Assembly (NCBI GenBank): GCA_963668315.1
Contig: OY764216.1
Location: 832,001-896,000 of the forward strand
Direction of reading: 5' to 3'
Length of the DNA stretch: 64,000 bases
DNA from: Spirochaetia bacterium
Lineage (GTDB): Bacteria; Spirochaetota; Spirochaetia; DSM-2461
Position 1 is the stretch's first letter. Every line of letters starts with the position of its first letter. Shown here piece after piece: positions 33,742 through 40,836 of the stretch. Under the pieces are notes generated by a model. That model did not search any database and had not been told where the DNA came from. It saw only the letters and a program-made list of their open reading frames with translations. Position numbers and translations under genes: made by a program.

Positions 33742-37224
<3,483 letters not shown>

Positions 37225-37244
<20 letters not shown>

Positions 37245-40655: not shown

Positions 40656-40689
40656 AAAAAAAAGACCCGTCCTCTGGGAGAACGGGTCT
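40656..40689 (-). terminator. Attenuator terminator of the leu/cimA operon
   Basis: Minus strand AGACCCGUUCUC-CCA-GAGGACGGGUCU plus a U-tract, ~70 nt upstream of leuA. Confidence 0.9.
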
Positions 40690-40710
40690 GCAATTTCTGC
40701 TAAACGCTTT

Positions 40711-40797
40711 TTACAGCGACCGTTCTCCATCCACTTCTATCCCTAGTAGAATAATTAGGGAGATGATAATAATGGATAAAACGGATTTATTGTTCAT
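40711..40797 (-). CDS. Attenuation leader peptide MNNKSVLSIIIISLIILLGIEVDGERSL (7 Ile, 5 Leu)
   Basis: 28 codons with a clustered Ile/Leu run including three CTA codons; 3' end is complementary to the terminator's 5' arm. Confidence 0.85.
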   Translation of the reverse strand: MNNKSVLSIIIISLIILLGIEVDGERSL

Positions 40798-40807
40798 TTC
40801 GAATATT

Positions 40808-40836
40808 ACCGTACGGCTTTGTTGCAAAAGAGTCAA
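40808..40836 (-). promoter_or_regulatory. Candidate sigma70 promoter of the leu leader
   Basis: TTGACT-17 nt-TACGGT on the minus strand, ending ~10 nt before the leader ATG. Confidence 0.45.

Follow-up and report, generated by a model that had tools for sequence, protein, structure and literature searches.

The window analysed here is a 64,000-nucleotide stretch of a Spirochaetia genome and carries on its minus strand a leuA-leuC-leuD-tam-leuB-cimA operon, with no ilv gene, headed by a short leader ORF and a predicted intrinsic terminator (Table 1). LeuA serves leucine, CimA serves isoleucine and LeuCD and LeuB serve both, CimA with LeuCD and LeuB making 2-oxobutanoate for isoleucine. The leuA gene has its own Shine-Dalgarno sequence at about 40600-40595. 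The tam-like gene occupies the same position between leuD and leuB in both congener loci that reach that far, and its product may methylate a pathway intermediate or side product. Elsewhere in the source genome ilvBN and ilvC are present besides leuABCD and cimA, as is, outside the operon, a further leuC-leuD pair of the long (proteobacterial) type. A threonine ammonia-lyase also scores over its cut-off here and in one of three congeners, and cimA is therefore not the only possible source of 2-oxobutanoate. Searches with TIGR00110, PF00920 and tblastn turned up no ilvD in this one-contig, 97% complete, N-free assembly, while two of the three congeners have the gene. The de novo route to isoleucine and leucine thus looks incomplete in the source genome, for which recent loss, an assembly gap or non-homologous replacement are the alternatives.

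Table 1. Features of the leader, the operon and other leaders of the genus. Positions are those of the window unless prefixed by G000 (source genome) or by a locus handle (L).
Feature	Position	Strand	Basis or remark
Promoter, sigma70-type, predicted	40808..40836	minus	-35 TTGACT (40836-40831), 17-nt spacer, -10 TACGGT (40813-40808)
Leader ORF, 28 codons and stop	40711..40797	minus	ATG at 40797, TAA 40713-40711; MNNKSVLSIIIISLIILLGIEVDGERSL
Control run, codons 7-18	40744..40779	minus	6 Ile and 4 Leu (3 CTA); stall scan, codon usage
Segment 1, pairs with 40735-40720 (1:2)	40771..40784	minus	folding; inner part not conserved in congeners
Segment 2, antiterminator 5' strand (codons 24-27)	40718..40728	minus	folding
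Inner 6-bp helix stacked inside antiterminator	40688..40716	minus	predicted fold; 40716-40711 with 40693-40688
Segment 3, antiterminator 3' arm and terminator 5' arm	40677..40688	minus	folding, covariation
Intrinsic terminator 3:4 and U-tract	40656..40689	minus	folding, covariation
leuA, 2-isopropylmalate synthase, 514 aa	39044..40588	minus	NF002084 782.8 bits > 748; TIGR00973 736.5 > 598.7
leuC-type dehydratase large subunit, 427 aa	37761..39044	minus	NF001614, TIGR01343, TIGR02086 over cut-off
leuD, small subunit, 180 aa	37225..37767	minus	TIGR00171 130.1 > 116.25
Class I SAM methyltransferase, trans-aconitate 2-methyltransferase (tam)-like	36471..37244	minus	NF002463 233.6 < 297, below cut-off
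leuB, 3-isopropylmalate dehydrogenase	35312..36391	minus	TIGR00169 525.5 > 353.2
cimA, citramalate synthase, 525 aa	33742..35319	minus	TIGR00977 711.5 > 450
Second leuC-leuD pair	G000:C1:5329273-5331280	plus
ilvN-ilvB leader	L122:3899-4084 (= G000 upstream of ilvN-ilvB)	minus	congeners L285:2199-2309, L286:1171-1338
tyrS leader	G000:C1:2988800-2988871 (L306:201-272)	plus	relatives L320, L321, L324
Thr-rich leader before asd	G000:C1:466043 (L307)	minus	relatives L308, L309

The leader ORF reads from start to stop as the preliminary description wrote it, its 28 residues including seven isoleucines, five leucines (TTA, CTA three times, CTG) and two valines, and the peptide has no match in a Pfam search. 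Beyond the control run, codon 20 is a further isoleucine (ATA) at the edge of the effective stall window. The description of the control codons as rare holds for leucine, with CTA at about 2% of Leu codons in long ORFs of the source genome, but not for isoleucine, with ATT (29%) and ATC (50%) both common there. Across the spirochaete leader set assembled below, CTA provides 95 of 247 Leu control codons. When 2587 operon-head-like upstream regions of the same genome were scanned with a detector for a short ORF with an Ile/Leu/Val run followed by a hairpin and U-tract, the leuA leader alone scored 9; nine regions scored at least 7 and 22 at least 6.

The predicted promoter ends 10 nt 5' of the leader ATG with no Shine-Dalgarno sequence between, which predicts a 5' UTR of only about 3-4 nt and hence a near-leaderless sensor ORF. 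The same promoter arrangement lies 7-8 nt before the ATG in all three congeners. A consensus promoter scan did not list this candidate (8/12 matches), and found no promoter-like site with 9/12 matches between the terminator and leuA. Among the 61 leaders of the spirochaete family, TTGA[C/T] stands 33-40 nt before the start in 50, compared with 143 of 4085 long-ORF starts in the source genome, and an SD-like motif precedes the start in only five.

Leader folding and the predicted stall window

The leader folds more stably than expected by composition (z = -4.67), none of 200 shuffles folding equally well. The terminator is as first described, with a 12-bp stem (40689-40663), a 3-nt loop and a folding energy of -19.3 kcal/mol; seven U residues then run to 40656. 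Segment 2 begins 15 nt 3' of the last CTA codon, and the duplex it forms in 2:3 (-15.9) is more stable than that in 1:2 (-13.7). The claim of mutually exclusive helices applies to 2:3 and 3:4, but not fully to 1:2 and 2:3, where only the basal 6 bp or so, involving the 5' 6 nt or so of segment 1, compete. In a transcript cut at the decision point and free of ribosome, the 2:3 helix forms with a probability of 0.86 alongside the inner part of 1:2. The 1:2 helix can form but is outcompeted at equilibrium, and the long 1:2 helix is not supported as a conserved element, its inner part not being kept in congeners. Because only the base of 1:2 competes, 2:3 is favoured without a ribosome, at 0.8-1.0 in this genus versus 0.2-0.4 in enterobacterial controls. 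In these models 1:2 is a weak anti-antiterminator, and deletion of the leader ATG therefore need not give super-attenuation, which makes a start-codon mutant a weaker test than the preliminary description assumed.

For the stall scan, the transcript was folded up to segment 3 with the ribosome footprint kept unpaired and an assumed 3' cover of 9-15 nt. Depending on the cover, 2:3 keeps a probability of 0.86 as far as A-site codon 18-20, and by codons 21-23 this has fallen to 0, which puts the switch at codons 19-23. The predicted permissive window extends to codons 19-21, and the Ile/Leu control run lies wholly inside it. The same step down after the control run is predicted in congeners and in four enterobacterial leuL controls. 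At full-length equilibrium the terminator wins at any ribosome position (0.91), and the switch would therefore rest on folding kinetics. Segment 2 pairs with its own segment 3 better than do the segment 2s of all 50 leaders from other families. Class-wide, the leader's own antiterminator beats mean cross-family pairing in only 43 of 61 leaders.

A branched-chain leader family in the Spirochaetia

All three congeners keep the promoter, ATG, Ile/Leu run, segment 2, stop codon and terminator. Their leaders have 28-29 codons and the same last four residues, and the segment 2 core (40727-40718) is invariant in all four members of the genus. To place this leader more widely, loci were drawn from 301 class genomes. 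A LeuA query matched 154 of these, of which 100 matches, hand-chosen for family spread and length of contig, were examined together with four added short-LeuA or related loci. The cimA family was over its cut-off in 222 genomes, and 40 long and 18 short cimA regions were added from genomes with no cimA seen beside the listed leuA. Among loci with at least 200 nt upstream, and counting leaders with terminator at a score of at least 6, such leaders precede 30 of 44 leuA+cimA operons (nine families; congener locus L039, on a contig that stops in leuC, is counted here), 32 of 61 ilv-containing operons (15 families), four of nine stand-alone leuA genes and four of 31 stand-alone cimA genes. The first two groups together carry them in 62 of 105 cases, compared with 22 of the 2587 background regions, and detector misses do not equal absences, as many ilvN-ilvC or ilvB-first operons have long Ile/Leu/Val-rich ORFs without an intrinsic terminator.

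An alignment of 49 leaders, none of them from this genus, shows class-wide covariation in both helices. Pairing reaches 98.4% in the terminator, where both partners vary at six of ten pairs (0/500 shuffles). For the antiterminator, aligned in a register chosen by eye, it is 90.7%, against 57-67% in slid controls, and both partners vary at four of eight pairs (28 cells; 1/500 shuffles); relatedness inflates the covariation controls. A covariance model built from the same 49 leaders scores the window at 40.7 bits, congeners at 41.9-52.1 and nine enterobacterial loci at no more than 20.7. The leuA leader is the top match in its own genome; the next two matches (36 and 35 bits) were rejected as ordinary gene-end terminators without a leader ORF. 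By its sequence, the leuA leader is a member of a Spirochaetia-wide branched-chain leader family. In Rfam, no family reaches its gathering threshold in the window, T-box and riboswitch models included, with sub-threshold scores for Thr_leader (18.9 < 55), His_leader (18.9 < 49) and Phe_leader (17.1 < 55). Leu_leader (RF00512) is not listed for the leuA leader at E <= 10 and matches none of ten spirochaete loci, while all three enterobacterial controls match at 108-124 bits.

The leuA gene itself may have a different history. The nearest LeuA sequences outside the genus in a genome-collection scan are mostly gammaproteobacterial (55-59%), with one other spirochaete at 68%. In a quick tree of 64 rows, with one row per family outside its own family, the genus LeuA groups with 14 gammaproteobacterial and three other spirochaete LeuAs (SH-aLRT 99); most leader-bearing spirochaetes have their LeuAs elsewhere in the tree. 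No leader of the Spirochaetia family was seen in those three spirochaetes. That the leader came in by horizontal transfer with a gammaproteobacterial leuA was rejected, as it is recognised by the spirochaete model but not by RF00512, and a reasonable reading of the sequences is that a native leader was kept in front of a replaced leuA.

Across the family, the control codons follow the genes downstream. Taking the Ile share as Ile/(Ile+Leu) in the best 12-codon window, it is 0.00 before stand-alone leuA (0 Ile, 30 Leu; four loci, which form one clade of short LeuA and therefore count as about one event), 0.53 before leuA+cimA (132/119; 30 loci) and 0.73 before stand-alone cimA (57/21; 11 loci, six families), where two loci lack any Leu in the control window. 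By comparison, 65 of 77 mostly gammaproteobacterial leuABCD loci give a share of 0.08. Twelve of the 18 extra cimA loci have cimA first or with its own leader; nine of them show an Ile run and terminator, seven at a score of at least 6, and seven score 40-61 bits with the spirochaete model. No branched-chain gene lies within 2.6 kb after stand-alone cimA in the nine genomes with enough sequence. Two genomes pair a Leu-dominated leuA leader ORF with an Ile-only cimA leader (L203/L289; L213/L288). Family means differ between cimA-only and leuA+cimA loci (p = 0.002 by rank test, with two sub-threshold loci and a likely false positive, L244, in the set), and operons with ilv genes have a Val share of 0.12 against 0.04 for those lacking them (p = 0.013), both p-values overstating the case since families are not independent. 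The proposal that the Ile-dominated run matches the citramalate route agrees with this gradient, and the link between Ile control codons and cimA is supported by these natural controls. Such loci offer a clean natural experiment, the control run forecasting for each leuA/cimA-family gene the branched-chain amino acid it works for. They help to tell citramalate from isopropylmalate synthases and indicate the isoleucine route in uncultured spirochaetes.

Several neighbouring observations concern this relationship between codons and genes. The stand-alone short LeuA proteins (about 380 aa; L224, L232, L233, L234; three related genera) lack the C-terminal regulatory domain, and each gene stands behind a Leu-only leader, the terminator sequences differing; attenuation may compensate for the absent feedback domain. 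A small exception is found in the Edwardsiella leu leaders (L049-L051), which have two Ile codons within the Leu run of an operon without cimA. In the source genome and two congeners, the ORF before ilvN-ilvB is Val-rich, its final 24 codons holding 9, 9 and 5 Val. This ORF is long and rich in Val, Leu and Ile, has its own Shine-Dalgarno sequence, and its control codons run right up to the stop. No intrinsic terminator was found at this leader in the source genome or the congeners. Similar terminator-less leaders precede ilvN-ilvC or ilvB-first operons in several other families; the mechanism may be Rho-dependent or translational.

Proposed attenuation, rival readings and related systems

The leader is very probably a ribosome-dependent transcription attenuator that senses both isoleucine and leucine and controls leuA-leuC-leuD-tam-leuB-cimA, a reading drawn from sequence comparison and folding models. 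In this model, RNA polymerase would start about 3-4 nt before the leader ATG and a ribosome would load without a Shine-Dalgarno sequence. Under a shortage of charged tRNA-Ile or tRNA-Leu the ribosome would stall within codons 7-18, and folding predicts that segment 2 then stays free, whereupon 2:3 and the inner helix would form before segment 4 is made, the terminator would not form in time and polymerase would read through into leuA and on to cimA. When both are plentiful, a ribosome that has gone beyond codon 21 or so and arrived at the stop is predicted to cover segment 2, and 3:4 with its U-tract would end transcription at 40656. By comparison among operons, the control codons appear to match the genes they would regulate, and codons for valine, which the operon genes do not serve, are nearly absent. 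The ribosome-dependent attenuation first proposed for this leader is favoured by the conservation of ORF, control run, antiterminator and terminator, by the covarying helices and by a predicted stall window that spans the Ile/Leu run.

An attenuator that in practice senses only leucine through rare CTA and TTA codons, with the Ile codons as AT-rich filler keeping the region unstructured, would explain why the CTA-CTA pair is the most invariant stretch of the genus leader alignment. The Ile codons are the common ATT and ATC, and the genome has two gene copies for the tRNA that reads them and one for tRNA-Leu(TAG). We nevertheless regard it as improbable: all four stand-alone leuA leaders are free of Ile while Ile makes up 73% before stand-alone cimA, two cimA leaders dispense with Leu, and two genomes hold Leu-dominated leuA and Ile-only cimA leaders side by side. 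Mere filler would not be expected to follow the enzyme encoded downstream.

Less probable still is a terminator switched by a protein, an uncharged tRNA in the manner of a T-box or a metabolite, with the ORF incidental or non-classical as in the Streptomyces leuA/ilvB leaders; according to PMC1262725, these looked classical and behaved otherwise on mutation. Such a switch would accommodate a 2:3 helix already favoured without a ribosome at the decision point and a leader ATG without a Shine-Dalgarno sequence, but neither a T-box nor a riboswitch is detected by Rfam in the window, the ORF start, frame and amino-acid bias are conserved while codons vary, the control codons follow operon content and the stall window ends just after the control run. 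That the terminator is constitutive, or belongs to a small hydrophobic peptide gene placed before leuA by chance, is hardly credible. The peptide core is hydrophobic enough for a short membrane segment and 3:4 dominates at equilibrium, yet leuA has no 9/12 promoter-like site of its own after the terminator, similar leaders recur before branched-chain operons far above background and the alternative helix covaries.

The attenuator reading shares its logic with enterobacterial leuL: a leader ORF of about 28 codons, a CTA-rich Leu run, a position directly before leuA, an antiterminator and terminator with one common strand and a similar stall-scan profile. The original attribution to the enterobacterial leuL/ilvL architecture is therefore apt for the logic but not for the RNA family. 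Moreover, leuL reads Leu only, whereas the spirochaete leader reads Ile and Leu, stands before an operon with cimA and is predicted to be near-leaderless. The leaders of enterobacterial ilvGMEDA and ilvBN are multivalent ilv attenuators. Others of this kind are reportedly a Leu-rich attenuator of S. aureus, the Corynebacterium ilvBNC leader and Listeria Rli60. These multivalent attenuators control ilv or ilv-leu operons and include Val codons, while the spirochaete leader is nearly without Val; they belong to a different phylum, and sequence homology was compared through Rfam only. According to PMC5864092, the Rli60 leader senses several branched-chain amino acids through ribosome speed and a 2:3 versus 3:4 switch, and has its own ribosome-binding site, unlike the spirochaete leader. 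Streptococcus leuA leaders are described in PMC5314783 as under Leu-only control, in contrast to Ile and Leu here, and the paper contains no occurrence of 'spirochaet' or 'citramalate'. Mycobacterial leaderless poly-Cys sORFs (bioRxiv 10.1101/834739) likewise place a sensor ORF at the very 5' end, as predicted here, but sense Cys and free a ribosome-binding site to act on translation, whereas the spirochaete leader has an intrinsic terminator.

Our literature search found no spirochaete leu/cimA attenuator, while entries of this kind could already exist in the broad attenuator surveys of Vitreschak 2004 and Lopatovskaya 2010; the part of PMC4833913 available mentions Spirochaetales only in leader-gene spacing statistics. 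The Spirochaetia branched-chain leader family is uncatalogued, lying outside all Rfam families and with no paper found, and its mechanism is textbook. Textbook control would thereby extend to a phylum for which no report was found, with a mechanism that would itself not surprise a specialist. If the leader does start a few nucleotides from the 5' end, it offers a tractable case in which ribosome loading is set against the pace of RNA polymerase without a Shine-Dalgarno sequence.

A broader view, which we hold at even odds, is that free-living spirochaetes share a phylum-specific attenuator chassis, with a promoter fused to the start codon, no Shine-Dalgarno sequence and one conserved terminator arm. 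Its sensor codons would be retuned to Leu for leuA, to Ile for cimA, to both for leuA-cimA, with Val added alongside ilv, and the native leader would have been kept before a gammaproteobacterial-type leuA. Near-leaderless sensor ORFs, also with Thr before asd and Tyr before tyrS, would then be the genus's general amino-acid control. Five consecutive Tyr codons stand in the 23-codon leader of tyrS (TIGR00234), whose ATG directly follows a promoter and which also has an alternative helix and a terminator. This leader is present in all four genus members and was not seen in two other genera tested. A ribosome-read Tyr attenuator on a tyrosyl-tRNA synthetase was not evident in a limited literature search, and this leader may be more novel than the leuA leader itself. 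A Thr-rich leader with terminator also precedes an archaeal/eukaryote-type asd, and is present in the two congeners where such an asd was found. Enterobacterial thr leaders mix Thr and Ile; the asd leaders each have 5-6 Thr and only one Ile, which fits isoleucine being made mainly by citramalate.
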